Virus record (IMG/VR): IMGVR_UViG_3300005077_000712
Coordinates: 25,209 to 89,208 of that record
Strand: one strand, 5' to 3'
DNA: 64,000 nt
Source: a virus
Taxonomy: Duplodnaviria > Caudoviricetes
Part shown: piece by piece, positions 3,594 to 17,222 of the stretch
Numbering within the stretch: the stretch's first letter is position 1
Layout: every line of letters begins with the position of its first letter
The notes under the pieces: generated by a model
What the model saw: the letters and a program-made list of their open reading frames with translations, nothing else
Databases searched by the model: none
Told to the model about the DNA's origin: nothing
Translations under genes and position numbers: made by a program

Positions 3594-3908
3594 TTAAAAT
3601 ATAATTTTTGTTATTACTATCCAAGCTATAAAAAAAGTAATAATATTTCCTAAAATTTCTATAAAATCCATTTGTTCTTCTGTATATTTTGAGGCATTAT
3701 AAAATACAAAAGATGAATTTATTAATGAAGTAGCTCCAAGCATTTTTTTAAAGAACATTAATGCTAATGCTGTAGAATAATTAATTAAAAGCAATGTTGA
3801 AGAAATATATGGGGCTATACAATTCCACATATCTTGCAAAAACATTGCATTTAAAAAAAGTGAACCAAAACTCATTATTATACCAAATATTTTTAAACCT
3901 TTATTCAT
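3594..3908 (-). CDS. Membrane protein
   Basis: 104 aa with about three hydrophobic segments. Confidence 0.6.
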   Translation of the reverse strand: MNKGLKIFGIIMSFGSLFLNAMFLQDMWNCIAPYISSTLLLINYSTALALMFFKKMLGATSLINSSFVFYNASKYTEEQMDFIEILGNIITFFIAWIVITKIIF

Positions 3909-5002
3909 AAAACTTCTTCCCCCATAAAAAATATTTTACCTTTATACTTTTCTTTAAAATGAACTTTTAACTGTTTTTTTATAACAGGTAAAATTTCTTT
4001 ACCATCAAGTAGAATAAACATAATTGAACTTTCTTTTTCTTGTGCTATTTGAGTTCTTAATTCAGTTCTTTTATATTTTTTCTTTAATTCTTCTAATTTA
4101 ATAGATGCCATATTTTCTTTTTCAAGAATCCAATTAGAAAATTCATCTCTGAATCCTTCAAGCATTTTAGCTTTATCAGCATATCCATAAGTATAAAGTT
4201 CAGAAATATAATCATCAATAGATTCATTGATATATAATTCTAATATATCATTTATAGAAAACTTAGATAAAGCTCTATGTCTATTAAGATACCATTGAGT
4301 TTTAACTTTATATAGATTACTTCCATCTCCTATTACAAAACCTTCAACCCCTTCAAGAGATTTAGTATATTCTATAAATTCTTTTAAAGTGCTAAGTTTA
4401 TCATTAACATTAAAAGTATTATAAAACTGATATTCACCAGTTCTATTATTTCTTATAGCTAATGGTTGTAATTGTTGTTCTTTATATTGTATTACAATTG
4501 GATTCTCATTATCTAAAAATTCAAATAAAGGAGTTAAACCATCTTTTAATTGAGACATAACTTTTTCTTTAACTTTATCACAAGTTTTTGAAAATAGTTC
4601 AGTTGCTTTTATAGCAACTTCAGAATAAAAACTTTTTTTAGATTTAAAAATAATCTTATCATTAACTAAAACAGGCATAACTAAAGACCCATCCCATTTA
4701 GTATCAATATAATTAATTTTATTCCAATTAATTAAATATTCTTGAGTTTCAGGACGTTGATTAATATTGAAAAATTTATGATATGGTCTACAAATAATAT
4801 CACCAGTAGACATATCAAAAGTTATACCTCTACACTCTCTTGCCAAAGCAGAATTAAAAGTAGTATCAGTTTCAATCATATAAGAAATTATACCAAATTC
4901 AATACCATCAACTATTTCAGTTTTTAGTTTAATTTCTTTCTTATTCTTTAATATATCATCAAACTGACTTATATTTGTTATTATTGGAAAATTCATTTTC
5001 AT
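3905..5002 (-). CDS. rnlA: RNA ligase, T4 Rnl1-like
   Basis: ARECRGITF, RPYHKFFN, motif I KWDGS, EGFV, YKVK. Confidence 0.9.
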   Translation of the reverse strand: MKMNFPIITNISQFDDILKNKKEIKLKTEIVDGIEFGIISYMIETDTTFNSALARECRGITFDMSTGDIICRPYHKFFNINQRPETQEYLINWNKINYIDTKWDGSLVMPVLVNDKIIFKSKKSFYSEVAIKATELFSKTCDKVKEKVMSQLKDGLTPLFEFLDNENPIVIQYKEQQLQPLAIRNNRTGEYQFYNTFNVNDKLSTLKEFIEYTKSLEGVEGFVIGDGSNLYKVKTQWYLNRHRALSKFSINDILELYINESIDDYISELYTYGYADKAKMLEGFRDEFSNWILEKENMASIKLEELKKKYKRTELRTQIAQEKESSIMFILLDGKEILPVIKKQLKVHFKEKYKGKIFFMGEEVL

Positions 5003-5114
5003 GCCTCAATTCACATTCAAGTTCTTCTCTTTTAAAGTCTTCTTTCTCTCTATTAACTGCATATCTTTCAATTCTTTCTCTTTCTGAAAAGGATTTATTC
5101 ATATAATTTTTCAT
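4959..5114 (-). CDS. Small hypothetical protein
   Basis: Probable start MKNYMNK after an AGGAG RBS. Confidence 0.4.
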   Translation of the reverse strand: MKNYMNKSFSERERIERYAVNREKEDFKREELECELRHENEFSNNNKYKSV

Positions 5115-5130
5115 AGTTTTCTCCTTTGTT

Positions 5131-6018
5131 TTAATATTCATTAAGTCCATAAGCATCTTGTCTTACATCAAAAGTAAATAGACCAAGTTTATCTTGCCAA
5201 CATTCTGATAATACTTGAATCCTATCATCAAAAACACCAACAACATTAAACTTTGGTTCTATGTATTTTCTATATAACTCTTCTTTAATAATTGAATCTC
5301 TTCTGTTATCTCCTTCCTCTCTCATATAAAGATAATCATTATCAATGAGATAATAATTTAACCACATAGCTGTTTCACTTCTATATTTTGAATCTCTACC
5401 TGAAAGAACAATTATGATATAGCCTGATTTTTTTAAAGCATTTAAAATACTAATAACTGGATATATAGGAAGATCCATACCAACTTTAGTACCATCAAAA
5501 ATATCTCTATCAGGATGTTTCAAAGCTAATGTACCATCTATATCAAAAATAAATGCAGGTTTTTTATCTGATTTAACTATATAAGAAAAATCATAACAAT
5601 CTCTTTCAGGTTTATTTGCTATATATTTTTTATAAGTATTTCTTATAACTCTTTCACCAACAGAAAATGGTCTTCGTTTATCTCTTTCAATTGCATCATC
5701 AAGAGATACATCAAATCTTTTTATTTCAATATCTACTTTTGGAGATATAGTTTTAATAAACTCTATATTTTTTTTAAGAGTTTTTGGGTTAAGATTCATT
5801 TCATCTATAACAAGATTATGACCATCCCTAAGAATAGTTTTTACATTTTCTCCCCAAATTTTTTGAACAAGTTTCTCTGACTTATAAGAATAATCATCTA
5901 TCATGTGTCTAATAGCATCACGATTAACTCTTTTATAAGTTTTATTAGTTTTAAGAAATTCAGTTACCCAAGTAGATTTACCTGAGCCTTGTATTCCTTG
6001 AGTAAGTATAACTTTCAT
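5131..6018 (-). CDS. pseT: Polynucleotide 5'-kinase/3'-phosphatase (T4 Pnkp-like)
   Basis: P-loop GIQGSGKS, RVNRD, HAD motif DIDGT, VFDDR. Confidence 0.93.
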   Translation of the reverse strand: MKVILTQGIQGSGKSTWVTEFLKTNKTYKRVNRDAIRHMIDDYSYKSEKLVQKIWGENVKTILRDGHNLVIDEMNLNPKTLKKNIEFIKTISPKVDIEIKRFDVSLDDAIERDKRRPFSVGERVIRNTYKKYIANKPERDCYDFSYIVKSDKKPAFIFDIDGTLALKHPDRDIFDGTKVGMDLPIYPVISILNALKKSGYIIIVLSGRDSKYRSETAMWLNYYLIDNDYLYMREEGDNRRDSIIKEELYRKYIEPKFNVVGVFDDRIQVLSECWQDKLGLFTFDVRQDAYGLNEY

Positions 6019-6020
6019 TT

Positions 6021-6248
6021 TTATTCCTCTGTCCAATCAAAAGTTAATGAAACTTTTGATTTTTTATTTTTTTTAGATGCTTTCATTTTAAATTCTAAAG
6101 TATCATTAAATTTCAATATTAATTGTTCTTTATCTTTTCTAAGTACAAGTTCTCCACCTTTAAAGGCAGATGCCAACATTTTTAAATAATTTGAGATTGA
6201 TTTAGAATCTTGGACTGCTTTATGTTTAAAATTTAATTTTTTTTTCAT
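6021..6248 (-). CDS. Amphi-Trp domain protein
   Basis: 75 aa ending in an alternating beta pattern, KVSLTFDW. Confidence 0.7.
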   Translation of the reverse strand: MKKKLNFKHKAVQDSKSISNYLKMLASAFKGGELVLRKDKEQLILKFNDTLEFKMKASKKNKKSKVSLTFDWTEE

Positions 6249-7106: not shown

Positions 7107-7454
7107 CTATTCTTCCTTTAAATATTTAATTTCATCTTCTTCACAAGCAATAATTTTATATTCTATAGCCTTAATAAAACTTTGATTAACAATATCAATC
7201 ACTATTTTATCTATCTGCATATTAGTCAATCTATTTTTATAATATTTACCTCTTTGAGAAATAACATATTCAAATGTTTCTGGATTACACCCTCCTCCAA
7301 ATGTAGCATTATTAGAATCAATTATACTACATATCTCATCTATAAAACAATCCATTTGTTTATTAGATAAAATAGTTTCAAAAGTTCCTTTAATAGCTAT
7401 ATAAGGTTCAAAAAATTCTTTTATTCTTAATTTTTTTCTCAATCTCTTTTTCAC
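7107..7454 (-). CDS. yggL: YggL (DUF469)-like 50S ribosome-binding protein
   Basis: GTG start. MKKRLRKKLRIKEF...FIDE...FGGG resembles YggL RRLRKKMHIDEF...FINE...FDGSG. Confidence 0.75.
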   Translation of the reverse strand: MKKRLRKKLRIKEFFEPYIAIKGTFETILSNKQMDCFIDEICSIIDSNNATFGGGCNPETFEYVISQRGKYYKNRLTNMQIDKIVIDIVNQSFIKAIEYKIIACEEDEIKYLKEE

Positions 7455-7507
7455 TTGTAAGTTCCTTTTAAAAAGATTATACGCACTTCTTATAATTACT
7501 GTTATGG

Positions 7508-7723
7508 CTAATTGCCTTTTAACTTCTCCAATCGCTGAATCATTATCGCTCTGTATTTATTTGCACCTTCAATCGCTCTTACTGTCTTTATGTTGCAATA
7601 TGGTAGGTTTGTGCTTCTGTCTGTAAACCACTCATCAACTTCCTGTTCGGTAGGCAACATAGCCATAACATCGGTTATATTCAATACCTTGCTTTCGTCT
7701 TGTTTTTTAGTTTTGTTTTTCAT
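7508..7723 (-). CDS. Cassette ORF, hypothetical
   Basis: Starts inside attC 7663-7794 and reads through the core as LNITDVMAM. Confidence 0.7.
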   Translation of the reverse strand: MKNKTKKQDESKVLNITDVMAMLPTEQEVDEWFTDRSTNLPYCNIKTVRAIEGANKYRAIMIQRLEKLKGN

Positions 7724-7794
7724 ATCAAGTTTTTTTTATTATTCAAAATTTGTGTTTCAAAATCGGCACTAAATATAGCCGAGAAACGTTAGGC
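7663..7794. other. attC-like site 1
   Basis: Minus strand: GCCTAAC GTTTC TCGGCTATATTTAGT...ATTGAATATAACCGA T GTTATGG. Confidence 0.8.
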
Positions 7795-8058
7795 GACATG
7801 CAACCTTAATCTATACATAATATCTATAAATTTGACAAGATTTTCCGTGCTTAAAAACTTAATCGGAATTTCTCCAGCATCATACATTTTTACTATTTCC
7901 CGCACGTCTCCTAACACGGCATTTGAGTCCGCTTCGCACATTGCCTCAATTATTACATCAGCTAAAAATCCGAACACTTTCGGCGGTATTTCCTGAATGT
8001 TACCATCACCGTCATTTGCAAAATTTTTTATTATATTTAATAACTTTTCTCTATACAT
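7789..8058 (-). CDS. Cassette ORF, hypothetical
   Basis: Starts in the loop of attC site 2, crosses the core as SNAVLGDVR, stop is the TAA of GCCTAAC. Confidence 0.7.
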   Translation of the reverse strand: MYREKLLNIIKNFANDGDGNIQEIPPKVFGFLADVIIEAMCEADSNAVLGDVREIVKMYDAGEIPIKFLSTENLVKFIDIMYRLRLHVA

Positions 8059-8109
8059 AACTTTCTTCTGTTAATTCGGCAACGTCTCAAATGCCGGGTA
8101 ATGTTGTAC
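7909..8109. other. attC-like site 2 (long, coding loop)
   Basis: Minus strand: GTACAAC ATTACC CGGCATTTGAG...CTCAAATGCCG T GTTAGGA; 11-bp perfect arms. Confidence 0.8.
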
Positions 8110-8110
8110 G

Positions 8111-8392
8111 TCATTTGAGCTTTGCCCACTTTGTAATATTCTTAAACGGCTCAAACCGTGAATTATCAAAACAATACATTCCTGCACACAAATAAACCAC
8201 TGGTCCACCCTCATCACATACCCATGCTTCAACGGTAAACTTTGACATCGCACATCCACCAATTCCCCCTCTCGGACCAGCTGTAGACCCGAATGTTTCT
8301 GGATAAGCATAATAATCTAAATCCATATACTCGACTTTTCGATCCTTAAGTATATCAATAACTTCTTGCGGTGGTTTGTTTTGATAATTCAC
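8111..8392 (-). CDS. Cassette ORF, hypothetical
   Basis: 93 aa (YPETFGSTAGPRGGIGG); AGGAG RBS. Confidence 0.7.
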   Translation of the reverse strand: MNYQNKPPQEVIDILKDRKVEYMDLDYYAYPETFGSTAGPRGGIGGCAMSKFTVEAWVCDEGGPVVYLCAGMYCFDNSRFEPFKNITKWAKLK

Positions 8393-8437
8393 GGCCTTTC
8401 TCCTTTCATGTATTTTATTCTGTGACGCTCAAACGAC

Positions 8438-8518
8438 GCACAACACTCGCTAAACGCTTCGCTTCGCTCGGCCTTCGGCACATGGCTTCGCCACGTCGTT
8501 TAGCTCTGCATGTTGTAC
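8438..8518. other. attC-like site 3
   Basis: Minus strand: GTACAAC ATGCAGA GCTAAACG...CGTTTAGC GAGT GTTGTGC. Confidence 0.85.
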
Positions 8519-8531
8519 GAAAGACGCACGA

Positions 8532-8732
8532 CTAATACTCTATTGGTTCATCCTTGTATTCATAAGTGTAATTACCGGTTCCCGTCCCGCTCGTTGTTAA
8601 TACGCTATGAAGTGCCTCATGCCCGCAAATAACACATCGCTTGAATGACGAGTCTCCGTGCCATACATGTTCAGGTTCTACGGTTGACCCACATTTTTTA
8701 CACTTATAACTTTGTTCAATCTTTATATACAT
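8532..8732 (-). CDS. Cassette ORF, small zinc-ribbon protein
   Basis: CKKC...CVIC; AGGAGG RBS. Confidence 0.7.
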   Translation of the reverse strand: MYIKIEQSYKCKKCGSTVEPEHVWHGDSSFKRCVICGHEALHSVLTTSGTGTGNYTYEYKDEPIEY

Positions 8733-8756
8733 AAATCCTCCTTTCGTGCGTCCTTC

Positions 8757-8847
8757 GTACAACAAAGCGTGAAACGAAAAACGACTTTATTTTATTTACA
8801 ACACTTTTACTATTCAGCGTTCTTCGTTTACGCTTGAATAGTTAGCG
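8757..8847. other. attC-like site 4
   Basis: Minus strand: CGCTAAC TATTCA AGCGTAAACG...CGTTTCACGCT TT GTTGTAC; one extrahelical base. Confidence 0.85.
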
Positions 8848-9071
8848 AACATTGCCATCGACTTGTTGCTTGTACCAATCCGCTCCCTCGCAAAATATGT
8901 GCATAGAAATACTTTCCTCAACGCCATATCTTTTGGCCAGCCACTGATATTTTTAATACGTTGTTTATTCAAATCCCCCGCATAATGGTCGGGCAACGAT
9001 CCGCTAACACGGCGTAAAACGAAAGCCGTCTTTATTATCTCAATTATCTTTCTGTACCATGTAGTTTTCAT
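8814..9071 (-). CDS. Cassette ORF, hypothetical
   Basis: AGGAG RBS and ATG inside attC site 5; crosses the core as LRRVSGSL. Confidence 0.65.
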   Translation of the reverse strand: MKTTWYRKIIEIIKTAFVLRRVSGSLPDHYAGDLNKQRIKNISGWPKDMALRKVFLCTYFARERIGTSNKSMAMFANYSSVNEER

Positions 9072-9125
9072 CTTGATTAAACTCCTTGTATTATCGGCCT
9101 ATCGTTTACGCCGGAATAGTTAGGC
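9002..9125. other. attC-like site 5
   Basis: Minus strand: GCCTAAC TATTC CGGCGTAAA...TTTACGCCG T GTTAGCG. Confidence 0.8.
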
Positions 9126-9326
9126 GACATTGCCAAACCCTTTTATGTATTTAATACATTCTTGGAATCCAGCCACAAAATATACTTGTTCCTTTTCTGA
9201 TATATTTAGTCCCTCGCTTATTCTTACTGCAATACCACCTGCTTCATAAATATTTGGCAACGGTCGCCTAACAGGGCGTATATTCAATTTCGCCCTTATT
9301 GCGTTAGTAGTATTACTTGACCTCAT
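9120..9326 (-). CDS. Cassette ORF, hypothetical
   Basis: Starts in attC site 6, crosses the core as NIRPVRRPL, stop is the TAA of the core. Confidence 0.65.
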   Translation of the reverse strand: MRSSNTTNAIRAKLNIRPVRRPLPNIYEAGGIAVRISEGLNISEKEQVYFVAGFQECIKYIKGFGNVA

Positions 9327-9392
9327 AAACTTATCCCTTTAATATGATTATTTCTATCATGCGAAACTAAACATACGCCCCATCAGTTATAT
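9266..9392. other. attC-like site 6
   Basis: Minus strand: ATATAAC TGATG GGGCGTATGTTTAGTTTCGC...GCGAAATTGAATATACGCCC T GTTAGGC; 20-bp stem with 3 G-T pairs. Confidence 0.85.
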
Positions 9393-9400
9393 GACATGGC

Positions 9401-9940
9401 TTAACTCTGGCTCGCCTTCCGTGGCTCGCTTTTTATTATCCTATCAAAACATATTTGTTTCGGCAATAAACCTCTACAAATATAAACACTCGAAAACGGA
9501 GGATTCAAACTCGGTTTTTGTTCTGTATAATCTTTAAAATATGCCACCCTTTTATTAAAATAAAGTATTTCAAAATCATTTGCTTCAAACATAGAAAATC
9601 TTTTTTCAGACTCGAATAATCCTACAACTCCAACAAGCATAGCAAATTTTTTATTCAACTTAAACAGTCTATCAAATACTTCGCCTTTTAAACTATAAGG
9701 AGGATTTGAAATAATAACATCACAATCAATATCAATATTAAAAAAATCATCACCGTTTGAAATATGCGTATTTTTTACGGCATTGCCATTATTCTTTAGC
9801 ATCTTTACAAAGTTACTTTCGTTCGTATCAAATGGACACCATACTGCTAAATTTGAATTTACATATTTCAATAAAGGCTCAATAGCATATTCAGGTGTAT
9901 AAAATTCATCCTGTTTTTTTGTAATTAAGTCAAGTTTCAT
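9401..9940 (-). CDS. Adenine-specific methyltransferase carried as a cassette
   Basis: DEFYTP, VWCPFD, IISNPPYS; GGAGAG RBS before MKLD. Confidence 0.8.
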   Translation of the reverse strand: MKLDLITKKQDEFYTPEYAIEPLLKYVNSNLAVWCPFDTNESNFVKMLKNNGNAVKNTHISNGDDFFNIDIDCDVIISNPPYSLKGEVFDRLFKLNKKFAMLVGVVGLFESEKRFSMFEANDFEILYFNKRVAYFKDYTEQKPSLNPPFSSVYICRGLLPKQICFDRIIKSEPRKASQS

Positions 9941-10007
9941 AAACTCTCCATACGTGTTCGGCATCCTGCCTCACACTAAATATATTTTTTGTTACAATCG
10001 CCACGTC

Positions 10008-10073
10008 ATATAACAACGGGTAAGCGTTCGCTTCACACACCCTTCGGGTGTCGCTTACCCTGTTCAGTTGTAC
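10008..10073. other. attC-like site 7
   Basis: Minus strand: GTACAAC TGAACA GGGTAAGCG ACACCCGAAGGGTGT...CGCTTACCC GTT GTTATAT. Confidence 0.85.
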
Positions 10074-10083
10074 GAAAGACGGC

Positions 10084-10290
10084 TTAACCCCCACCATAAA
10101 CATAAAAACCTTCTGCATCTTTAATCTCTCTCGGCTCAAGCGATAAATCAGCATGGGTATATCCCAACTTTTCAAGAACAAGTTTTCTCGCTTGCTCTGA
10201 ATTTTCAGCATATGCGAAGGCTATGCCTGCTGTATAATCTCTTAATACATTTTCCCATACATATAATTTTAATTTACTTATTGCTTCCAT
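10084..10290 (-). CDS. Cassette ORF, hypothetical
   Basis: 68 aa; GAGG RBS. Confidence 0.7.
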   Translation of the reverse strand: MEAISKLKLYVWENVLRDYTAGIAFAYAENSEQARKLVLEKLGYTHADLSLEPREIKDAEGFYVYGGG

Positions 10291-10348
10291 ACTAAATTAC
10301 CTCACTTTATATTTTACTTTCAATGCGTATTCTCATAGCCTTGAATAG

Positions 10349-10618
10349 TTAGCTAAAATGCTCGCTAACTTCTGCCATTTCAATATCATATTCTAATTCC
10401 ATTTGCTTAGCTCCATACCCATTAGACATCCAGTCTATAATATCTGTAAGTTTAGAAACTCTTTCTCGCAATGCTCGCACTTCAGCTAACACGGTGTCAT
10501 GCGTCATTGATTCCCTACATTTATTACAATATATAATTCCTATTGGATCACCATAATCTTTTCCACATTTAACATAATCGCTATGACAATATCTTAATAA
10601 GGCACCACATCCCTTCAT
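10349..10618 (-). CDS. Cassette ORF, Cys-containing hypothetical
   Basis: GGGAGG RBS and first ~43 codons lie inside the attC-like site at 10484-10666; crosses the core as HDTVLAEVRA; stop is the TAA of the core. Confidence 0.7.
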   Translation of the reverse strand: MKGCGALLRYCHSDYVKCGKDYGDPIGIIYCNKCRESMTHDTVLAEVRALRERVSKLTDIIDWMSNGYGAKQMELEYDIEMAEVSEHFS

Positions 10619-10666
10619 AATATCCTCCCTTGAATATCAACGACGCATACGCAGTCTCAGTTAGGC
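10484..10666. other. attC-like site 8 (long, coding loop)
   Basis: Minus strand: GCCTAAC TGAGA CTGCGTATGCGTC...GACGCATGACACCG T GTTAGCT. Confidence 0.75.
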
Positions 10667-10675
10667 GAAAGACGG

Positions 10676-10912
10676 CTAAACCTTTCGTATTTCAAAATTT
10701 ATTATCGAATATTTAAAATAAGCAATAAACAGTCTATATAATGCTATTATCAATAATTCTGTACTATAGATTCTCCACCCCGGATCGCCAATGTTTACAC
10801 ATAAAACTTGATATTTCCATCCATAACTTTCTCCTTTTAGTCGCCGTCCTTCGCCCAACACTCGGCAAACGCCATGAGTACACAGCGTCTGCCTCAGCAT
10901 GTTAGCAGCCAT
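10676..10912 (-). CDS. Cassette ORF, small membrane protein; start uncertain
   Basis: Open frame GWKYQVLCVNIGDPGW...; the AGGAG-preceded ATG near 10822 is one base out of frame. Confidence 0.4.
   Translation of the reverse strand: MAANMLRQTLCTHGVCRVLGEGRRLKGESYGWKYQVLCVNIGDPGWRIYSTELLIIALYRLFIAYFKYSIINFEIRKV
10853..10907. other. attC-like site 9 (short)
   Basis: Minus strand: TGCTAAC ATGCTGA GGCAGACGC...GCGTTTGCC GAGT GTTGGGC. Confidence 0.75.
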
Positions 10913-11144
10913 TTAAGACAAAAAACTTTTTAGCCTTATCTCTGAACTTGCCAACTCCAGATAATCTTACCATAAAATCATCACCTATGGCTTCAATAAA
11001 CTCACCTTCTTTTAAGTGTGGTTCATCTCCAATCGCACTTTCATAAATCGGATAGAATAAACGGCTGCTAACAGCAGGTATATTCAATGCCGAGCATCGA
11101 GTGTAATCAGAGTTTAGTTTTTCAATCAAGCCTTGTGTTGTCAT
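10902..11144 (-). CDS. Cassette ORF, hypothetical
   Basis: Starts in attC site 10, crosses the core as LNIPAVSSR, stop is the TAA of the core. Confidence 0.7.
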   Translation of the reverse strand: MTTQGLIEKLNSDYTRCSALNIPAVSSRLFYPIYESAIGDEPHLKEGEFIEAIGDDFMVRLSGVGKFRDKAKKFFVLNGC

Positions 11145-11205
11145 ATAATTTTGTATTTCAAATTTGGCACTAAATATACCTGCTCATACGCTTAAAAAGT
11201 TAGCA
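11066..11205. other. attC-like site 10 (same family as site 1)
   Basis: Minus strand: TGCTAAC...AGCAGGTATATTTAGTGCC...GGCATTGAATATACCTGCT GTTAGCA. Confidence 0.8.
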
Positions 11206-11216
11206 GAAATAACCGC

Positions 11217-11396
11217 CTAATCTTTAGTGATAATCTTATATGTATAGTAATCACTATCTTTAAACATATTCATTCTATTCTTATATAAATCTTTTAAAGA
11301 TTGCTCAACTCTTTCTTTTGCTTTCTTGCCACGAAATATTTTATATAATTTATATTCATCAAATGGATTTACTCGTCTTAATATTCTATACTCCAT
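11217..11396 (-). CDS. Cassette ORF, basic hypothetical
   Basis: MEYRILRR... after AAGGAGG. Confidence 0.65.
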   Translation of the reverse strand: MEYRILRRVNPFDEYKLYKIFRGKKAKERVEQSLKDLYKNRMNMFKDSDYYTYKIITKD

Positions 11397-11425
11397 ATAC
11401 TCCCTCCTTTGATGGCGGTTACATC

Positions 11426-11479
11426 CGCTAACATCGAGCAAGCGACATTGAAACGATCACCTACCTTTTTTAGTTAGAC
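11426..11479. other. attC-like site 11 (short)
   Basis: Minus strand: GTCTAAC TAAAAAA GGTAGGTGA...TCGCTTGCT CGAT GTTAGCG. Confidence 0.75.
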
Positions 11480-11483
11480 GTAA

Positions 11484-11651
11484 TTATTCGCCAACTTTTT
11501 CTGATGATTTAGCTCCACCGCACATCCCCATTATCATTGATAATTGTCCTATCATCTGCAATCCAAGTTCTTCATGACTTTTACTTTTCGGTATGCTATT
11601 TATTGCACACTCGCATAACTCAATTATTTTATCATATACATCATCTTTCAT
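11484..11651 (-). CDS. Cassette ORF, hypothetical
   Basis: MKDDVY... after AGGAGG. Confidence 0.65.
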   Translation of the reverse strand: MKDDVYDKIIELCECAINSIPKSKSHEELGLQMIGQLSMIMGMCGGAKSSEKVGE

Positions 11652-11684
11652 TTTAATCCTCCTGTAATAATGGCGAATAACTAC

Positions 11685-11738
11685 GCCTAACATCGGGCAA
11701 GCGACATTAAAACGGTCGCCTGCTCTGTTTAGTTAGGC
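11685..11738. other. attC-like site 12 (same family as site 11)
   Basis: Minus strand: GCCTAAC TAAACA GAGCAGGCGAC CGTTTTAAT GTCGCTTGCCC GAT GTTAGGC. Confidence 0.8.
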
Positions 11739-12209
11739 GAAACGGCTTAAAAATATTTCCATCATTTTGACCGCCTCTTCTCTATCACTGTTTTTTTCTC
11801 CCTCTGATAAATATTTATATTCTGTTTTCATTTGTCTTTTCCATCTATCAACTGCCCACTTCGGAATAACTAAATTTTTCTCTCCGTCTGGTTCTGCTAA
11901 TGTTGGCTCAAGATAAATCTCATAGCACTTGCTAAATAAATACTGCATCCATCCAGACTATTGACTATGCGCAAATGCGGCCAGCTCCTCTTTTAGTTCA
12001 GCCGTATCGCATAACACAGCATTAGACGAAAGAGGCTTTTCGCATTCTACCGCTTTATCCAGTATCCTATTCAATGGATCAGAATAATCTTTATTTTTTA
12101 AATACTCTATATCTTTCTCCATCCTTTCTATTCTCTCTGTTAACGCTCGCACTTCAGCTAACAGAGATATTTGATATAATTTTAAAATAGATTCTCTCAA
12201 ATCATCCAT
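11733..12209 (-). pseudogene. Chimeric cassette ORF interrupted by an in-frame TAG (11958-11960)
   Basis: ORFs 11958-12266 and 11733-11948 are in the same frame: ...AAFAHSQ*SGWMQYLFSKC...; the TAG sits where the family motif HxQWSGWM has Trp (TGG). Confidence 0.65.
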
Positions 12210-12252
12210 ATATTCCCTCCTCAAATTTTCGCATATTCTCAATATGTTGTAC
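12156..12252. other. attC-like site 13 (coding loop)
   Basis: Minus strand: GTACAAC ATATT GAGAATATGCGA...TCAAATATCTC T GTTAGCT. Confidence 0.7.
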
Positions 12253-12262
12253 GAAAGACTGC

Positions 12263-12433
12263 TCAATCTTTTTTATATTTTAATTCTAACTCTTTATAAA
12301 AACTACATATTGCACAACAATCTAACCCACAATCACAAAATGTTCGTTTGCCAGTTTTAATATATTCTTCTTCAATCCAATCTTGATAACAAGCCCAACA
12401 TTCTCCGTGTCCACAACCGCATCTCTTTTCCAT
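12263..12433 (-). CDS. Cassette ORF, 56-aa Cys-rich protein
   Basis: MEKRCGCGHGECWAC...CDCGLDCCAIC; AAGGGGG RBS; not in the ORF track. Confidence 0.65.
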   Translation of the reverse strand: MEKRCGCGHGECWACYQDWIEEEYIKTGKRTFCDCGLDCCAICSFYKELELKYKKD

Positions 12434-12463
12434 TAGCTAACCCCCTTCTATTCGTTGCCCTTC

Positions 12464-12531
12464 GTACAACACTTGCTAAATGCCACTTCGCTACATGGCT
12501 TTGATACGTTGTTTAGCTCTGCATGTTGTGC
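12464..12531. other. attC-like site 14 (same family as site 3)
   Basis: Minus strand: GCACAAC ATGCAGA GCTAAAC...CATTTAGC AAGT GTTGTAC. Confidence 0.85.
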
Positions 12532-12542
12532 GAAATTGCGCC

Positions 12543-12884
12543 TCACTCACTGCTCTTAAAATCTTCTTCTGGACTAAACCAATCGTTGTTAACGATATGA
12601 CCTATCGCATGCACCTTGCTATGCTCGCACTTTACCCGTATTGTTTTACCCTTCAACTGACTCCATTTTGAAACTTCCGCTATCTGCATTACCCTGAAAA
12701 TAAAATGTCCCGCTACAGACTCTAACTTGTAGTGCGTAAAGCTTTTCGGCAAATATAGCGCATACCCTCCAAACCCCTGACCGATCCCGCCATAATTAAG
12801 ATTCACCCACGCAGACAGACACCCGTGGTCATCATTTGTAATTTCCGCTGACTCAATAATCGCATTTCTGATTTCTAATTCCAT
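12543..12884 (-). CDS. Cassette ORF, conserved phage hypothetical
   Basis: NAIIESA...DHGCLSAWVNLNYGGIGQGFGGY; AGGAG RBS. Confidence 0.7.
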   Translation of the reverse strand: MELEIRNAIIESAEITNDDHGCLSAWVNLNYGGIGQGFGGYALYLPKSFTHYKLESVAGHFIFRVMQIAEVSKWSQLKGKTIRVKCEHSKVHAIGHIVNNDWFSPEEDFKSSE

Positions 12885-12929
12885 TTCTAATCTCCTATTA
12901 ATTAAGCAACGCCTCAAATACCATCTCTG

Positions 12930-13568
12930 TTAGTCGGCATTGCTTAAATATTTTTCTAATTCTTTTTCAAGTGCTATTACAATTCTCTCCAAACTTGCTC
13001 TGGTATGCTCCCTGAAATTATCTTCTCGTAACAGTATTTTCATTGTATCAAGTTGAGTCATAAGATGGATAAAATCAACTTGTTCTATCAAAACTTTGCC
13101 TAATAAAGAATCATGAGTTTCAGCTTTCGGCAAATTTTGAGGAATTACTTTATTTATTAAATCTTCTATTCGCTGACATAGTTCTGGTCTATTATCAGCA
13201 TAATCTTCCAAAAGTCCATTTACAATAATTTTTGATACTTCTCTTGAATCTATTTTTTTATCCCCTCTTCTATACTCGTTTAAAAAATCATAGACATCTG
13301 ACATTGATTCAAACTGTTTATGATAATCTTTAAATTTTTCATTAAAAGAATTTAATTGATCTTTTTCACATTGTTTTTCAAATTCAGGATCTTCAAGTTT
13401 TTTAGTATAAAAATCTGTTAGTCCACTACATATACCACATCCACCGTCACCATATTTCCCATGTTCGCACCAACCATTATCTGTTGATAAATCTTTTTCC
13501 TCTTGCATTGCTTTATCTATTCCTTTTTGAACTTTAGATTTATCATATTTTAAATCTTCTATTTTCAT
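12930..13568 (-). CDS. Hypothetical protein; its stop is part of the last attC half site
   Basis: 212-aa ORF ending GCC GAC TAA C. Confidence 0.65.
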   Translation of the reverse strand: MKIEDLKYDKSKVQKGIDKAMQEEKDLSTDNGWCEHGKYGDGGCGICSGLTDFYTKKLEDPEFEKQCEKDQLNSFNEKFKDYHKQFESMSDVYDFLNEYRRGDKKIDSREVSKIIVNGLLEDYADNRPELCQRIEDLINKVIPQNLPKAETHDSLLGKVLIEQVDFIHLMTQLDTMKILLREDNFREHTRASLERIVIALEKELEKYLSNAD

Positions 13569-13572
13569 TTCT

Positions 13573-14661
13573 TTATTGCTTCTCTTCTTTCAATAAAAAT
13601 TCAGGATTAATTACTTTAAAACTTGTAAATGGAAGATCTATACTCCTAAACACAAGCCCTTCTCTATCTTTAAGAGTATTAAGGACACTCTTTCCATAAC
13701 TTTCTTTTACAACACTATTTACATCAGAAAAAATAAATTTTTTTGTATCAATAATTGGAACAAGTTTTAAACCTGTTTCGTCTATAAATCTAATAATTTC
13801 ATTATATTGAAAATATTCATTTTTGTCAATATTAAATACATTAAATATATAGAACTCATTTTCTTTTAACTCATAAGGATTACCTTGAATCTTTGGCCCA
13901 ATAATTTCACCTTGAATGGCAATATTCATTTTATGCTTTTTACTATATTCTTTAAGAATAAAATCAATATTATATTTTTTAGCTATATTAAAATAAGCAT
14001 TATCTTTACTATTTGAAAGATTAATATTTCTTGAAGCAAATCCAAATTTACCTTTATTAAACCAAAAAGAAGAACTCATACCATCAAGTTTTTCAGTTAA
14101 ATAAAATACCCTGTTCTGATTATTCCATATAATAGATGGAATAGATTGTATTCTTGTTTCATCAGTTTTTCTAATAAATGATGGGAATCCCTTCTCTTTA
14201 TCCTCAAAAAATTTAAAATAAATTGTTCTAAATACTTTAAACTTAAAAAAGAATTTAAAGAGTTTAGATTTCTTATGATTAGTATTAAAAGCTGTTTGTT
14301 CTTCAACTAATTGAGGATCATATTTTTTAATACCAAGTATATCAGTAATATCAACACCTTCTTTAGCAACTATTTTAAAGCCACTATCTCTTAATGATTG
14401 AATAGGAATTATAAGTCCCTGACTGATCTGACCACGAAGTTTAATTATTCTAACACGATATTTTCTTTCTTCAAGAAATTCAAACATAGGTATTTGAGGG
14501 ACTATAGAATCAGTCTCCATATAGCAAACAAGATCACCAACATTAAATTCACCTTTTTTAACTACAACTTCCCATCCAAGGACTTGAGCTACTTCAATTT
14601 TATCTGCTCCTTCAATTGGACGTATTGATATTATTTTTTGTATGGTTGCTAATTGTCTCAT
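13573..14661 (-). CDS. RNA ligase, DRB0094 family
   Basis: MRQLATIQKI...IEGADKIE...KLRGQISQGL, TEKLDG, QGEIIG, REGLV. Confidence 0.9.
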   Translation of the reverse strand: MRQLATIQKIISIRPIEGADKIEVAQVLGWEVVVKKGEFNVGDLVCYMETDSIVPQIPMFEFLEERKYRVRIIKLRGQISQGLIIPIQSLRDSGFKIVAKEGVDITDILGIKKYDPQLVEEQTAFNTNHKKSKLFKFFFKFKVFRTIYFKFFEDKEKGFPSFIRKTDETRIQSIPSIIWNNQNRVFYLTEKLDGMSSSFWFNKGKFGFASRNINLSNSKDNAYFNIAKKYNIDFILKEYSKKHKMNIAIQGEIIGPKIQGNPYELKENEFYIFNVFNIDKNEYFQYNEIIRFIDETGLKLVPIIDTKKFIFSDVNSVVKESYGKSVLNTLKDREGLVFRSIDLPFTSFKVINPEFLLKEEKQ

Positions 14662-14663
14662 TT

Positions 14664-15017
14664 TTATACCTCATTTATTATTTCATTTGCAATTAATAAT
14701 GCACATTGTTCACATCTTGTTACTAAATCAATTTTTGATTTATTTATATCAACTTTATACTTTCTTTGGTATTCTGATAAATAAGAAATATCAGGGATTA
14801 TATAAGGACTTTTATGATTCATTCCTCTTCTTAACATTTCTTCTGCTAATTCATCATGTCTTGTTTGCATTGATTCAGGCTCAATTTGACCTAATTCAAT
14901 TCTTTTATTTATAGAGTGCTTTTTCTCGAAGTTATGCTTATGTTTATGAATTTCTCCATGTTCACCAATGAGATGTTTATTACAAAGTAATTTTGGGTCT
15001 ACCATCCACATTCTCAT
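14664..15017 (-). CDS. denV: Pyrimidine-dimer DNA glycosylase (endonuclease V)
   Basis: MRMWMVDPKLLCNKHLIGEHGEIH...RHDELAEEMLRRGMNH. Confidence 0.85.
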   Translation of the reverse strand: MRMWMVDPKLLCNKHLIGEHGEIHKHKHNFEKKHSINKRIELGQIEPESMQTRHDELAEEMLRRGMNHKSPYIIPDISYLSEYQRKYKVDINKSKIDLVTRCEQCALLIANEIINEV

Positions 15018-16890
15018 TTATTCCTAACCTATCCTCAATAATTTTACAATATTCTTCACTTAATTCACAACCAATTGCATTTCTATTTAATTCCTTTGCA
15101 ACAACTAATGTAGTACCTGCACCTGCAAATGGGTCAAGAATTGTATCATCTATATATGAAAACATTTTTATACATCTTTTTGCAAGTTCTTTTGGAAACA
15201 TTGCAGGATGCCCAATTTTTTTCATCTGTGTCTCAGGTGGAAATTTCCACAAAGCTAATGACCAATCTATAAATTCTTCTTTAGTTAAATCAGTTTCACC
15301 TTTTCTGTTTAACTTCTTATCTTCTTTTGCAAATACTAATATATGCTCAAAAGGTGTTGGAAAGGATGGGCAAGATGGCGACATAAATGAACCCCAGGAA
15401 CAATTATGGAATATTACTTTACCACTATAACTTTCATCTTCTTCTACTTGCAAATTGCAAACATCAATGTTTTCCACATATTCTTTTGTAATTTCTTTTA
15501 TTTTATAAAAGCCATAATGACTTCCTATTTTGCTTTTATTATATCTATATTTAAAATTATTATTTATATCTTCATTTAAGACATTTTTTTTTATTTTATC
15601 AATAAATTTTCCATATATTCGTAACACATAAGCATCACTATTACCTTTTATAATTCTTCCACTTTGTAACATTGTATCTCTATTATTTTTTTTATAAACA
15701 GAAGATAATATTTTAAGTCTTAATAAAATATCTCTTATTTGGTAACATAGTTCTTTAGAAATGGAAACATAACCAACTTCTGTTTCACTAATATACCCAT
15801 CACTTCTTATTAATCCTTTTATTAATTGTTTTTGTAAAAAAAATGGTGCTTGAAATAAAAATGGATGTATCTTTTTATTTTTTGCTAATTTACCACCTAA
15901 AACTTCTAAAATTTTAGGCAAAACTTTTTTTGATGATATACAAATACGATTTAAATTTTCTCTTTTTTCATAAAAAAAACTCCAATTAAATTCTTTACAA
16001 ATATTTTCAACATCTTTACAATAATTCGTTTCATTTAGACCAAAATCTATTCTTATTGTTGTATCTTTATGCGTAGATCCATCACCTATATAATAACCTA
16101 ATAATCTAAAAAAACCTTCAGAGTAATAATTTATTTTTTCGTTAGTTATTTTAGATAATCGTTCATTAAAATTTTCAACATTCCCATGATATTGAGTTGT
16201 ATATTTTGGAACTATTGCATACCACTCACCGTTATTATATAATTCTTCTGGAGTTTTCCACAAAAAATTCCAATTTACTCTTTTTTTTGGAGTATATTTT
16301 CCACATCTTCTTTCTAATGGGGAAACATAAATTTTATGACCTTCAGTTAATACAATATCTTCTCCAAAACTTGATTTTATCTTATAAATAAACCCACTAT
16401 ATTTATTTCTAAATATATTTTCAACTTTTTTAAATCTTCTATTATGAGTTAAAACTTTATCACCAATTTTTATATTTTGTATTTCTATATAACCATTATC
16501 TGTATTTATCAATTCATCAGGTAATAAACACCTATTCCCAACTTGAGACTTTTCCCATATAATATGTGTCATTGGTATATATGTTAAATTAACCATAAAT
16601 TGAATTATATCAGAACTAGTCGGGACTCCACCGTTGCGGCCATCACCAATATTTATAACTACACGACCACCTTTAACAAGTTTCATATATATAAGAAAAA
16701 ATATAGATTTAAGCCAATTAATATATTCTTTATGGTCTTTATTATCATTATAAAGATTATAAGGATTTTTATTATATTTATTATTTCCTAAATCAACATT
16801 GTATGGTGGAGATGTAACAACTAAATGCACACTATCATCTTGAATAGTGTGCAAAGTTTTAAAGCAATCTCCTTGTAATATTTGTATCAT
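14980..16890 (-). CDS. N4-C/N6-A DNA methyltransferase containing an intein
   Basis: VVTSPPYN; HPAMFP...ILDPFAGAGTT; probable start MIQILQGD. Confidence 0.9.
   Translation of the reverse strand: MIQILQGDCFKTLHTIQDDSVHLVVTSPPYNVDLGNNKYNKNPYNLYNDNKDHKEYINWLKSIFFLIYMKLVKGGRVVINIGDGRNGGVPTSSDIIQFMVNLTYIPMTHIIWEKSQVGNRCLLPDELINTDNGYIEIQNIKIGDKVLTHNRRFKKVENIFRNKYSGFIYKIKSSFGEDIVLTEGHKIYVSPLERRCGKYTPKKRVNWNFLWKTPEELYNNGEWYAIVPKYTTQYHGNVENFNERLSKITNEKINYYSEGFFRLLGYYIGDGSTHKDTTIRIDFGLNETNYCKDVENICKEFNWSFFYEKRENLNRICISSKKVLPKILEVLGGKLAKNKKIHPFLFQAPFFLQKQLIKGLIRSDGYISETEVGYVSISKELCYQIRDILLRLKILSSVYKKNNRDTMLQSGRIIKGNSDAYVLRIYGKFIDKIKKNVLNEDINNNFKYRYNKSKIGSHYGFYKIKEITKEYVENIDVCNLQVEEDESYSGKVIFHNCSWGSFMSPSCPSFPTPFEHILVFAKEDKKLNRKGETDLTKEEFIDWSLALWKFPPETQMKKIGHPAMFPKELAKRCIKMFSYIDDTILDPFAGAGTTLVVAKELNRNAIGCELSEEYCKIIEDRLGINENVDGRPKITL
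15403..16530 (-). mobile_element. Intein with LAGLIDADG endonuclease (376 aa)
   Basis: N-terminus CLLPDELI, block B LTEGH, LLGYYIGDG and IKGLIRSDG, C-terminal HN followed by Cys+1. Confidence 0.9.
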
Positions 16891-17222
16891 TTTGCAAAAT
16901 TCCATTTACTTGAATAATCTATAGTTTCGTATTCACCAAGTTTTATTTCTTGATTTATATTTTGTAAAACTATTTGTAACGCTATTTTTGTTTCTAAATG
17001 CAATTTATCTAATTCTTTTTCCTGTTCTTCTGTAAGATCGCTATCATCATCTTTTGATCTCAATTCAAGTATTTCAGCTATATCTCTAATAACATCAGAA
17101 TTACCATAAGGACGTTTACAATTTATTGAAGGCGCACCATATTCACAGTCCCACCAACTTACATACATATTTCTTAATAGTATAAGATGTTCTTCTCTTA
17201 AAATAAATGTTTTTTTATTCAT
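16887..17222 (-). CDS. Conserved phage hypothetical protein
   Basis: CKRPYGNSDV; probable start MNKK (the track start lies inside a terminator hairpin). Confidence 0.65.
   Translation of the reverse strand: MNKKTFILREEHLILLRNMYVSWWDCEYGAPSINCKRPYGNSDVIRDIAEILELRSKDDDSDLTEEQEKELDKLHLETKIALQIVLQNINQEIKLGEYETIDYSSKWNFAK

Follow-up and report, generated by a model that had tools for sequence, protein, structure and literature searches.

The window, a stretch of 64,000 nucleotides from a tailed-phage (Caudoviricetes) record, contains a cassette array at positions 7501..12935 on the minus strand, consisting of approximately 17 hairpin sites and approximately 18 small genes. The GC content is 36.9% within the array compared with 24-27% in its flanks, and every gene between 7.5 and 13.6 kb lies on the minus strand. 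Along this strand, each site follows the order YAAC, a 5-9 nt spacer, stem, loop, stem, a 0-6 nt spacer, and GTTR. Each gene module is flanked by module-specific inverted repeats of 10-21 nt that adjoin the cores. The features are as follows, all on the minus strand unless otherwise stated.

7508..7723, 71-aa gene from the S1 loop; the cassette ends at a lone core, GTTATGGCTA (plus strand, 7501-7510)
7663..7794, site S1, 132 nt; loop ATG at 7723 without SD; LNITDV read through arm and GTT
7666-7664, second ATG in the S1 core (GTT ATG G), an alternative start for gene 7508-7723
7789..8058, 89-aa gene from the S2 loop; its stop is the TAA of the S1 TAAC core
7909..8109, site S2, 201 nt; loop with weak SD, ATG at 8058 and 48 codons; SNAVLGDV
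8438..8518, site S3, short type
8532-8732, gene next to S3, with SD and ATG placed past the upstream core
8757..8847, site S4, short/medium type
8814..9071, 85-aa gene from the S5 loop
9002..9125, site S5, 124 nt; loop with SD AAGGAG and ATG at 9071; LRRVSG
9120..9326, 68-aa gene from the S6 loop; no Met past the core; stop in the S5 TAAC
9266..9392, site S6, 127 nt; loop with SD-like AAGGG and ATG at 9326; NIRPVR; stem of 21 bp that includes, on the gene strand, three G.T pairs
9401..9964, DNA methyltransferase cassette, 187 aa; ordinary start past site S7
10008..10073, site S7, short type
10084..10290, 68-aa gene from the S8 loop; full-length phrog_34232 member
10217..10353, site S8; GCTAAC core, 5-nt spacer, 9-bp stem with arms at 10334-10342 and 10217-10225
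10349..10618, 89-aa gene from the S9 loop; head plus start-less tail LAEVRAL...SEHFS from the core TTA
10484..10666, site S9, 183 nt; loop with SD GGGAGG, ATG at 10618 and a 43-aa Cys-rich head; HDTVLAEV
10853..10907, site S10, short type
10902..11144, 80-aa gene from the S11 loop; stop in TAAC
11066..11205, site S11, 140 nt; loop ATG at 11144 without SD; LNIPAV
11426..11479, site S12, short type; loop motif CGTTTCAATG
11685..11738, site S13, short type; loop motif CGTTTTAATG
11958..12209, composite gene, 83 aa, from the S15 loop head onward
12009..12035, half site S14; distal arm coding PLSSNAV plus core GTTATGC; proximal arm missing
12156..12252, site S15, ~97 nt; SD GAGGAGG inside the proximal arm, ATG at 12209; SLLAEV
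12464..12531, site S16, short type
12904..12935, site S17, truncated; only core and proximal arm
12930..13568, 212-aa ORF at the upstream array end; stop in the S17 TAAC

All seven sites at which the initial annotation had placed a start codon inside the hairpin loop (7663, 7909, 9002, 9266, 10484, 11066, and 12156) bear an in-frame loop ATG, and the arm and core peptides it had given read as listed above. The far end of the site at 7909 is corrected to 8109, and an eighth loop-start site, 10217-10353, is added, whose distal arm corresponds to codons 23-25 (G-I-A, to the first base of F26) of gene 10084-10290 and whose GTT core is no longer present. The loop start is the regular start for about half of the array genes. 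Likewise borne out are the six ORF stops inside the TAAC core (7789, 9120, 10349, 10902, 11733, and 12930), the half site near 12015, which reads SNAVLCD, and the use of two frames only, with GTT read as Val in four cases and xxG-TTA as Leu in four, although this pattern is forced at GTTAG cores, where reading in the third frame meets a TAG, and therefore provides no extra evidence. The composite gene 11958-12209 comprises the S15 head, ~12 residues from the beginning of the LAEVRAL tail, other sequence, the arm and core of S14, which is read through, and 18 codons of the next cassette. The ORF at 12930-13568 is probably an old fusion, since it contains an internal distal-arm motif, PQNLPKAETHDSL at 13104-13142, followed by a decayed core, ATTAGG.

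The hairpin family in phages and host chromosomes

The hairpins belong to a real, uncatalogued family, common to Flavobacteriales chromosomes and their phages, for which no match was found in Rfam. In a covariance model derived from 13 short sites, compensatory changes occur at 11 of 14 pairs; AAC and (T)GTT are invariant in the 13 aligned sites, while the flanking positions covary. The hairpins carry an asymmetric internal loop, ranging from 5x1 to 9x6, and families of arms recur among the sites. In the phage, G.U/G.T pairs favour the gene strand, an effect that is weaker with DNA parameters, and folding of the sense strand is much more favourable under RNA than under DNA parameters. Within the 89-kb record, the model matches the array only, and all 23 matches in phage loci fall on the gene strand. 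Another match is the published attC1 of Polaribacter phage P12002L, a family member that had already been listed as a putative attC; it alone among the phage sites gave no recombinants with IntI1 (Qi et al. 2023, PMC9892861). In that study, HattCI labelled as the bottom strand of P12002L_attC1 the one that carries the gene in the phage (PMC9892861).

Sites are present in 17 of 151 Flavobacteriales genomes, and in 17 of 19 informative host cases the site lies at the 3' end of a gene encoded on the strand opposite to the model strand. At two host loci, at least four such cassettes are located downstream of a short tyrosine recombinase, which at one of them adjoins a GTTGTGTAC junction. This recombinase is a short Xer-type enzyme of ~275 aa, composed of a SAM-like and a catalytic domain without the integron-integrase insert, and both host genes examined are interrupted. 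In the phages, the genes are encoded on the other strand of the site, which places the hairpin 5' of its gene; the host polarity (gene, then site) is the opposite. A gene upstream of, and moving with, its own attC is found in the host chromosomal arrays but not in the phages. No recombinase was found in the record, whose completeness is only 41%, nor in P12002L, whose genome is complete.

Several characteristics connect the array with integrons and phage CALINs (Qi et al. 2023, PMC9892861). The site ends bear an inverse core RYYYAAC and a core GTTRRRY. As YAAC/GTTR, these close the base of an imperfect hairpin, in which the inner boxes pair and a spacer stays unpaired and which is conserved at the level of structure. 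Single small promoter-less genes lie between the sites, with stops inside TAAC and a methyltransferase among the cargo, and host chromosomal arrays stand beside a tyrosine recombinase. By structure, the array is CALIN-like, with approximately 17 clustered attC-like sites and no integrase in 89 kb. The 5' end of the cassette and the inverse core of the site that belongs to it are complementary, a feature of circular origin, and module-specific terminal inverted repeats beside the cores are expected from a circular intermediate. Unlike integrons and CALINs, however, the present system shows no IntI with the signature insert in the record, in P12002L or in the 151 host genomes, none of which reaches the TIGR02249 cut-off. 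Its short sites have a conserved apical loop, CGTTTTAATG, unlike attC, as well as terminal inverted repeats of 10-20 nt, and its phage genes lie on the folding (bottom-type) strand, with the site 5' of the gene and partly coding. A hairpin element of the IS200/IS605 type was ruled against, given that neither the record nor P12002L has a PF01797 match (Y1 HUH transposase, TnpA). In the loci L139 and L141, the proximity of TnpB genes to cassettes looks incidental.

Translation of the loop-coded parts

The loop codes the first 15-48 codons of the loop-start genes. An SD is clear for five of the eight starts (8814-9071, 9120-9326, 10084-10290, 10349-10618, and 11958-12209), weak for 7789-8058, and absent for 7508-7723 and 10902-11144. 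It is highly improbable that the true starts lie past the cores and that the longest ORFs reach back to the loop ATGs by chance, an outcome that the initial annotation had named as contrary to its reading. Such an artefact would be consistent with the ATG directly in the core for gene 7508-7723, with the site-free homologs of the GTTATGCGAAGGGC gene, which begin at the core ATG, and with the two loop ATGs lacking an SD. Against it stand the SD ahead of five loop ATGs and the lack of a plausible start past the core in six of the eight genes. Moreover, in 5000 shuffles per site scored for an in-frame open ATG, the chance expectation was 0.16-0.30 per site, with a product of ~3e-5.

The loop-coded heads are also conserved at the protein level. 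Gene 10084-10290 matches phrog_34232 end to end, with homologs that occur both with and without sites. Gene 10902-11144 has full-length homologs, 86-91% identical, in Flavobacteriales phage and prophage DNA; its head is conserved, synonymous and non-synonymous changes being equally numerous there, as in the rest of the gene, and this conservation extends to a prophage copy with a decayed site (GTT to GTA, silent; AAC to AAA). For another gene, the leaders of five site-linked copies are in frame and come from three hairpin families, and a search with gene 7789-8058 yielded no homolog. On the basis of this conservation, the loop-coded parts can be regarded as translated.

Module boundaries and the mode of exchange

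Every module common to related phages ends at AAC, and mosaic blocks in the loci L071-L078 and L079/L085-L089 end at sites. In more than 10 comparisons, the downstream hairpin was never co-inherited with the gene and was always unrelated, whereas the closest pairs do have their upstream hairpin in common, with gene/hairpin identity at 96/91% and 95/90%, as do the window and L139. Exchange has occurred at other edges as well: divergence between L071 and L078 begins right after GTT, the LAEVRAL and GTTATGCGAAGGGC modules each have several different upstream hairpins, and L143 and L146 have both arms in common but differ in the loop, so that the pattern also fits short-homology recombination.

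These boundaries bear on the two crossover points considered in the initial annotation, whose underlying observation is confirmed and whose interpretation is partly supported. Crossover at AAC, which would make each cassette an expression-ready unit carrying its site at the 5' end, is best supported, since modules end at AAC and the upstream hairpin is co-inherited, and it also fits the opposite gene-to-site polarity of the host arrays. Crossover at GTT, which would swap N-termini, holds for a 45-aa tail whose first codon is the TTA in the cores of sites 10484 and 12156: the search for one tail behind varied N-termini found it behind at least seven unrelated ones, joined exactly at the core, and in no core-joined form does it have a start of its own (P0038, a distant 50-aa homolog, stands alone). 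As a general principle, however, N-terminus swapping fails, given that the products of 10902-11144 and 10084-10290 align collinearly with homologs over their full length, even where the homologous copy has a decayed site or none. The distinction drawn from the textbook cassette with its non-coding 3' attC remains valid.

Two other explanations of the array deserve consideration. If textbook polarity applied, each gene would own the hairpin behind it, crossover would occur at G|TT on the coding strand, and the loop-start ORFs would span two cassettes, making the array mainly a shuffler of heads and tails. The LAEVRAL tail joined to its many heads exactly at G|TTA, the gene with three different leaders joined at GTT, the L071/L078 split, and the resemblance of a TAAC stop followed by a hairpin to ordinary cassettes are all compatible with it. 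Nevertheless, the consistent lack of co-inheritance of the downstream hairpin, the collinear heads and tails of 10902-11144 and 10084-10290 in all homologs, and the reverse site-to-gene polarity of the host arrays render this arrangement quite improbable.

Alternatively, the hairpins could be regulatory linkers akin to PeSL, acting through mRNA structure and translational coupling, with homologous or microhomology shuffling among co-infecting phages and no dedicated enzyme. There is a precedent in T4-type phages (PMC2839356, PMC4122927), where conserved stem-loops between small accessory genes in hyperplastic regions mark swap points, and the present motif likewise marks boundaries of insertion, deletion, and replacement among related phages. 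Boundaries at every conserved edge (AAC, proximal arm/loop, loop/distal arm, and GTT), the recurring arm families, the missing recombinase in the record and P12002L, and the better folding under RNA parameters point in the same direction. The composite of early sigma-70 promoter and terminator stem-loop is, however, lacking: sigma-70-like promoters number 29 against 26 +/- 5.5 in shuffles, which is no excess, and terminator-like sites number 5 against 2.7 +/- 1.7, none of them at hairpins. AAC and TGTT are constant over very different hairpins and GC contents, module-specific inverted repeats of 10-20 nt lie beside the cores, and a tyrosine recombinase adjoins the host arrays, in which the opposite strand of the copies relative to transcription argues against a role at the RNA level. 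This explanation is accordingly considered unlikely.

The array probably represents cassettes of an integron-like system that Flavobacteria-type hosts have in common with their phages and that uses folded hairpin sites, placed 5' of the gene in the phages. On the host side, sites beside a short Xer-type recombinase, the putative enzyme, follow their own gene, with the best-folding strand being non-coding, whereas phage genes are written on the folding strand. A presumed cut at AA|C on the folding strand would yield a unit of hairpin, GTT, gene, and TAA|C, an order that would make the hairpin the 5' leader of its gene. In about half of the cassettes, the RBS, the start codon, and 15-48 N-terminal codons lie in the loop, and in some families the RBS forms part of the proximal arm and pairs with an anti-SD located in the distal arm; the distal arm and GTT core are then translated, the core as Val or Leu. 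Since the upstream stop lies in or adjoins the TAAC core, we infer that the terminating ribosome may open the stem and couple the translation of successive cassettes. Most loop-coded heads move together with their own gene; less often, exchange also occurs on the GTT side, placing start-less tails such as LAEVRAL... behind many heads.

Related arrangements have been described in which hairpin sites are coding. In synthetic attC sites within coding sequences, the arms encode linkers between protein parts (Nivina et al. 2020, PMC7439510), but these were engineered for IntI1, whereas the present array is natural, with a different putative enzyme. In ORF-11 and ORF-18 of attI1, short attC ORFs, and aacA4 fusions, translation begins in the site and crosses the crossover point, the site ORF helps or extends the next cassette, and start-less cassettes borrow an upstream start (PMC8876359). 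The ORFs in those cases encode short coupling peptides, or they arise as rare accidents at attI or at attC sites that have decayed, in contrast to the site-borne start of the present array, which is regular for about half of the genes and extends to as many as 48 conserved residues. The hairpins often hold the RBS, the start, and the first codons, and part of the recombination site is therefore translated.

The cassette array and its hairpins

The virus record containing the window comprises 89 kb in IMG/VR at 26.6% GC, with a CheckV completeness of 41%, and encodes a terminase, two RNA ligases, PNKP, and Dam. The block at 7.5-12.9 kb of the window stands at 36.9% GC, against 24-27% in its flanks, and consists of approximately 18 small minus-strand genes with approximately 17 palindromic sites between them (S1 to S17). 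On the gene strand, all sites have the same layout, namely YAAC, a spacer of 5-9 nt, stem, loop, stem, a spacer of 0-6 nt, and GTTR; the arm next to YAAC is referred to as proximal and that next to GTTR as distal. Strong Shine-Dalgarno (SD) cassettes are mixed in the array (7501-12935) with cassettes having A-rich, SD-less leaders, and the nearest relatives of the cassettes lie on contigs of 27-46% GC, which together suggests a cassette pool common to phages of different hosts.

Several other features of the region were recorded. RNA-repair genes, encoding a T4 Rnl1-type ligase, PNKP, and a second RNA ligase with an OB fold, are located on both sides of the array (3905-6036 and 13573-14661, minus strand); a relative of the flanking RNA ligase (L001, 48% GC) carries no sites. 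Unusually for a phage, the first gene beyond the array (7107-7454, minus strand) gives a match to the YggL family of 50S ribosome-binding proteins (E 3e-9). An intein containing a LAGLIDADG endonuclease domain splits a DNA methylase gene at 14980-16905 (minus strand). Gene 8111-8392 contains a perfect 19-nt inverted repeat (8156-8174 and 8376-8394), formed by its first codons, GTG start included, and a stretch near its 3' end, and adjoining no AAC or GTT core. The cassette of about 190 nt between S9 and S10 (10667-10852) has no convincing ORF, the sole candidates being a 9-codon ORF after a good SD and ORF 10676-10912, which overlaps S10; it may represent an ORF-less or micro-peptide cassette.

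A first naive hairpin scanner proved too noisy in AT-rich DNA, and a stricter scanner was used instead, together with a covariance model built on 13 short sites, drawn from related loci as well as the window. The model comprises 14 pairs, with compensatory changes in 11, and the short sites have the loop motif CGTTTTAATG in common. Across the whole record, matches were confined to the array and scored much higher on the gene strand, while all 23 matches in 55 other loci were on the gene strand. Matches were also obtained in Polaribacter phage P12002L, between its methyltransferase genes, one of them being P12002L_attC1, a site predicted by HattCI only and the sole phage site without IntI1 recombination (Qi et al. 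2023, PMC9892861). The hairpins are a real and widespread family. Rfam holds no family matching them, and the model detected no member in MW202573 or Pseudoalteromonas phage H101, two further phages with published CALINs. Exact pattern scans of viral and genome contigs with GTTGTACGAAAGACK, a 19-mer of S3/S16, and a 22-mer of S12/S13 returned single chance matches or none, and blastn of the array against isolated phages returned methyltransferase matches only.

Gene starts within the hairpin loops

The initial annotation proposed that genes begin inside the sites and are translated through the core. All seven loop-start sites that it listed are present, the peptides read across arm and core agree exactly with its list, and both the frames (Val in four cases, Leu in four) and the six stops provided by the TAA of a TAAC core were confirmed. 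The restriction to two frames is forced, since GTTAG cores contain TAG. An eighth loop-start site was added at 10217-10353; its distal arm falls in codons 23-25 of gene 10084-10290, extending one base into codon 26. Of these eight loop ATGs, five follow a good Shine-Dalgarno motif, and a plausible alternative start is lacking in six of the genes. Were the loop ATGs chance extensions of ORFs with true starts downstream of the cores, an explanation that fits poorly and is highly improbable, each site would have to yield an in-frame open ATG by chance; in shuffled site interiors this occurs at 0.16-0.30 per site, with a product of 3e-5.

Sequence comparison indicates translation of the loop-coded parts. 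Gene 10084-10290 aligns with phrog_34232 over its full length and has 17 homologs, some of which lie within tightly packed phage operons without any site. Gene 10902-11144 has 80-aa homologs at 86-91% identity, and hairpin and gene have stayed together in a phage-like Flavobacteriales contig (L139/L140). The head, that is, the N-terminal part coded in the loop, is conserved even where the site has decayed, in a Mu-like prophage (L138) of a 4.5-Mb Bacteroidota chromosome: there, GTT has changed silently to GTA, AAC has become AAA, and the proximal arm is lost, and synonymous and non-synonymous changes are equally numerous in the head, as they are elsewhere in the gene. A relative of 10084-10290 in L079 and L085-L089 starts GTT ATG at the core and lies behind long-loop hairpins of three families, each with an in-frame ATG GAA leader of 13-19 codons. 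For the protein of 7789-8058, the homolog search found nothing besides itself.

Module boundaries and the joining of heads to tails

Related phage contigs are mosaics built of the same kind of cassettes. In all comparisons, shared gene modules end at AAC (plus 1-2 nt) and are followed by unrelated hairpins, while the upstream hairpin is common to the closest pairs, namely two with gene/hairpin identity of 96/91% and 95/90% and the pair of the window and L139. Homology in these pairs begins at the proximal arm, right after the preceding AAC; in more distant pairs, the break falls at T|GTT. At one related locus (L076, ~2250-2275, TATAAAAC|GTTATG), an AAC core is joined straight to a GTT core between two genes, with no hairpin, as though the junction were "empty" or the hairpin had been precisely lost. 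TnpB genes (OrfB_IS605 / Cas12f-like) adjoin cassettes in two related loci (L141:1633-2883 and L139:10714-11868); the L141 insertion has apparently deleted the AAC side of a long-loop site.

For the 89-aa protein of 10349-10618, homologs found by exhaustive HMMER search cover the last 45-60 residues only. The tail (LAEVRAL...SEHFS) begins at the TTA of the core G|TTAGCTGAAGTGCGAGC and is under purifying selection. In four DNA contexts, identity of this module starts exactly at T|GTT and ends at AGCTAA|C. None of the forms joined at the core has its own start; a distant homolog of 50 aa (P0038) has an initial Met of its own. Two hairpin frames recur, in which an SD inside the proximal arm pairs with CCTC of the distal arm and the distal arm encodes PLSSDAV or PQNLPKA..YSL; one and the same frame occurs with different loop-coded heads in L143 and L146. 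Gene 11958-12209 of the window is composite and reads through a half site. The expectation that crossover at the core would swap N-termini is borne out for this tail, where at least seven unrelated heads (15 to ~123 residues, counting head plus arm-coded linker) are joined exactly there, but head-tail swapping is not the rule. One tentative reading, possible rather than probable, is an analogue of exon shuffling, in which recombination sites would be folded and embedded in coding sequence, with heads contributing start signals and small N-terminal domains such as zinc ribbons. A recombinase or short-homology core exchange would join these loop-encoded heads in frame to start-less tails, new small chimeras would continually be made and tested, and the same hairpin would gate translation.

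Host arrays, polarity, and mechanism

Among 151 Flavobacteriales genomes, the model detected one or two strong sites in 17 genomes, and none of the 151 reached the integron-integrase cut-off. In 17 of 19 informative host cases, the gene and the model match lie on opposite strands and the site stands at the 3' end of the gene, the reverse of the phage arrangement. With filters off, two host loci were inspected, both being arrays immediately downstream of a short tyrosine recombinase in the same orientation (~275 aa, with a SAM-like and a catalytic domain), each copy of which is broken by a frameshift or stop:

L176, G126:C5:26500-33500: Flavobacteriales chromosomal array of at least four cassettes, short tyrosine recombinase adjoining
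L177, G062:C3:833000-843500: Flavobacteriales chromosomal array of at least four cassettes, short tyrosine recombinase adjoining

In L176, GTTGTGTAC forms the junction between the recombinase and the first cassette, the ends of which are complementary. Cargo of the two arrays includes a WG-repeat/Hint protein, a T9SS-sorted protein, and a GAF protein.

Orienting the sites by the arm with extra bases was dropped as ambiguous, since the canonical aadA7 attC has arms equal in total length (Table S3, PMC9892861). The folding (bottom-type) strand was taken to be the model strand, in agreement with the G.U/G.T pairs (a bias weaker under DNA parameters), the HattCI call for P12002L_attC1, and a cut at AA|C on that strand. 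With this strand and cut, the mobile unit would be a gene plus 3' site in hosts and a 5' site plus gene in phages, the latter being what the inheritance pattern shows.

Integron cassettes are typically promoter-less genes with a non-coding site behind, moved by IntI. Such textbook polarity fits the phage arrays poorly and is improbable here. The system is probably integron-like, with a putative Xer-type recombinase and gene polarity reversed in phages. A serious rival, which we nevertheless consider unlikely, is short-homology exchange of the PeSL kind (PMC2839356, PMC4122927): boundaries are seen at all conserved edges and no recombinase was found in the 89-kb record or P12002L, whereas no promoter or terminator signature was found and neither element is in excess, the cores are invariant, each module has private terminal repeats, and polarity is reversed in hosts. 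No HUH transposase was found in the record or in P12002L.

CALINs have been described in virulent phages (PMC9892861), as have ORF-11/18, short ORFs inside attC, and fused cassettes (PMC8876359), and synthetic coding attC sites (PMC7439510); our literature search found no paper on site-borne gene starts or Xer-type arrays of this hairpin family. The Bacteroidota phage arrays follow the same logic as integrons, but the enzyme context differs (putatively Xer-type, without the IntI insert), gene polarity is reversed, and the recombination site also serves as leader, start, and N-terminal coding sequence. Such cassettes call for care in annotation, as their orientation or start will be miscalled by attC finders and gene callers. 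The sites are natural examples of recombination sites tolerating translation, useful for structure-specific recombination tools. In one clear case or more, heads and tails of proteins have been recombined at the core of a site. For the phages, a 5' site with start signals would explain cassettes that are expression-ready at any landing place.
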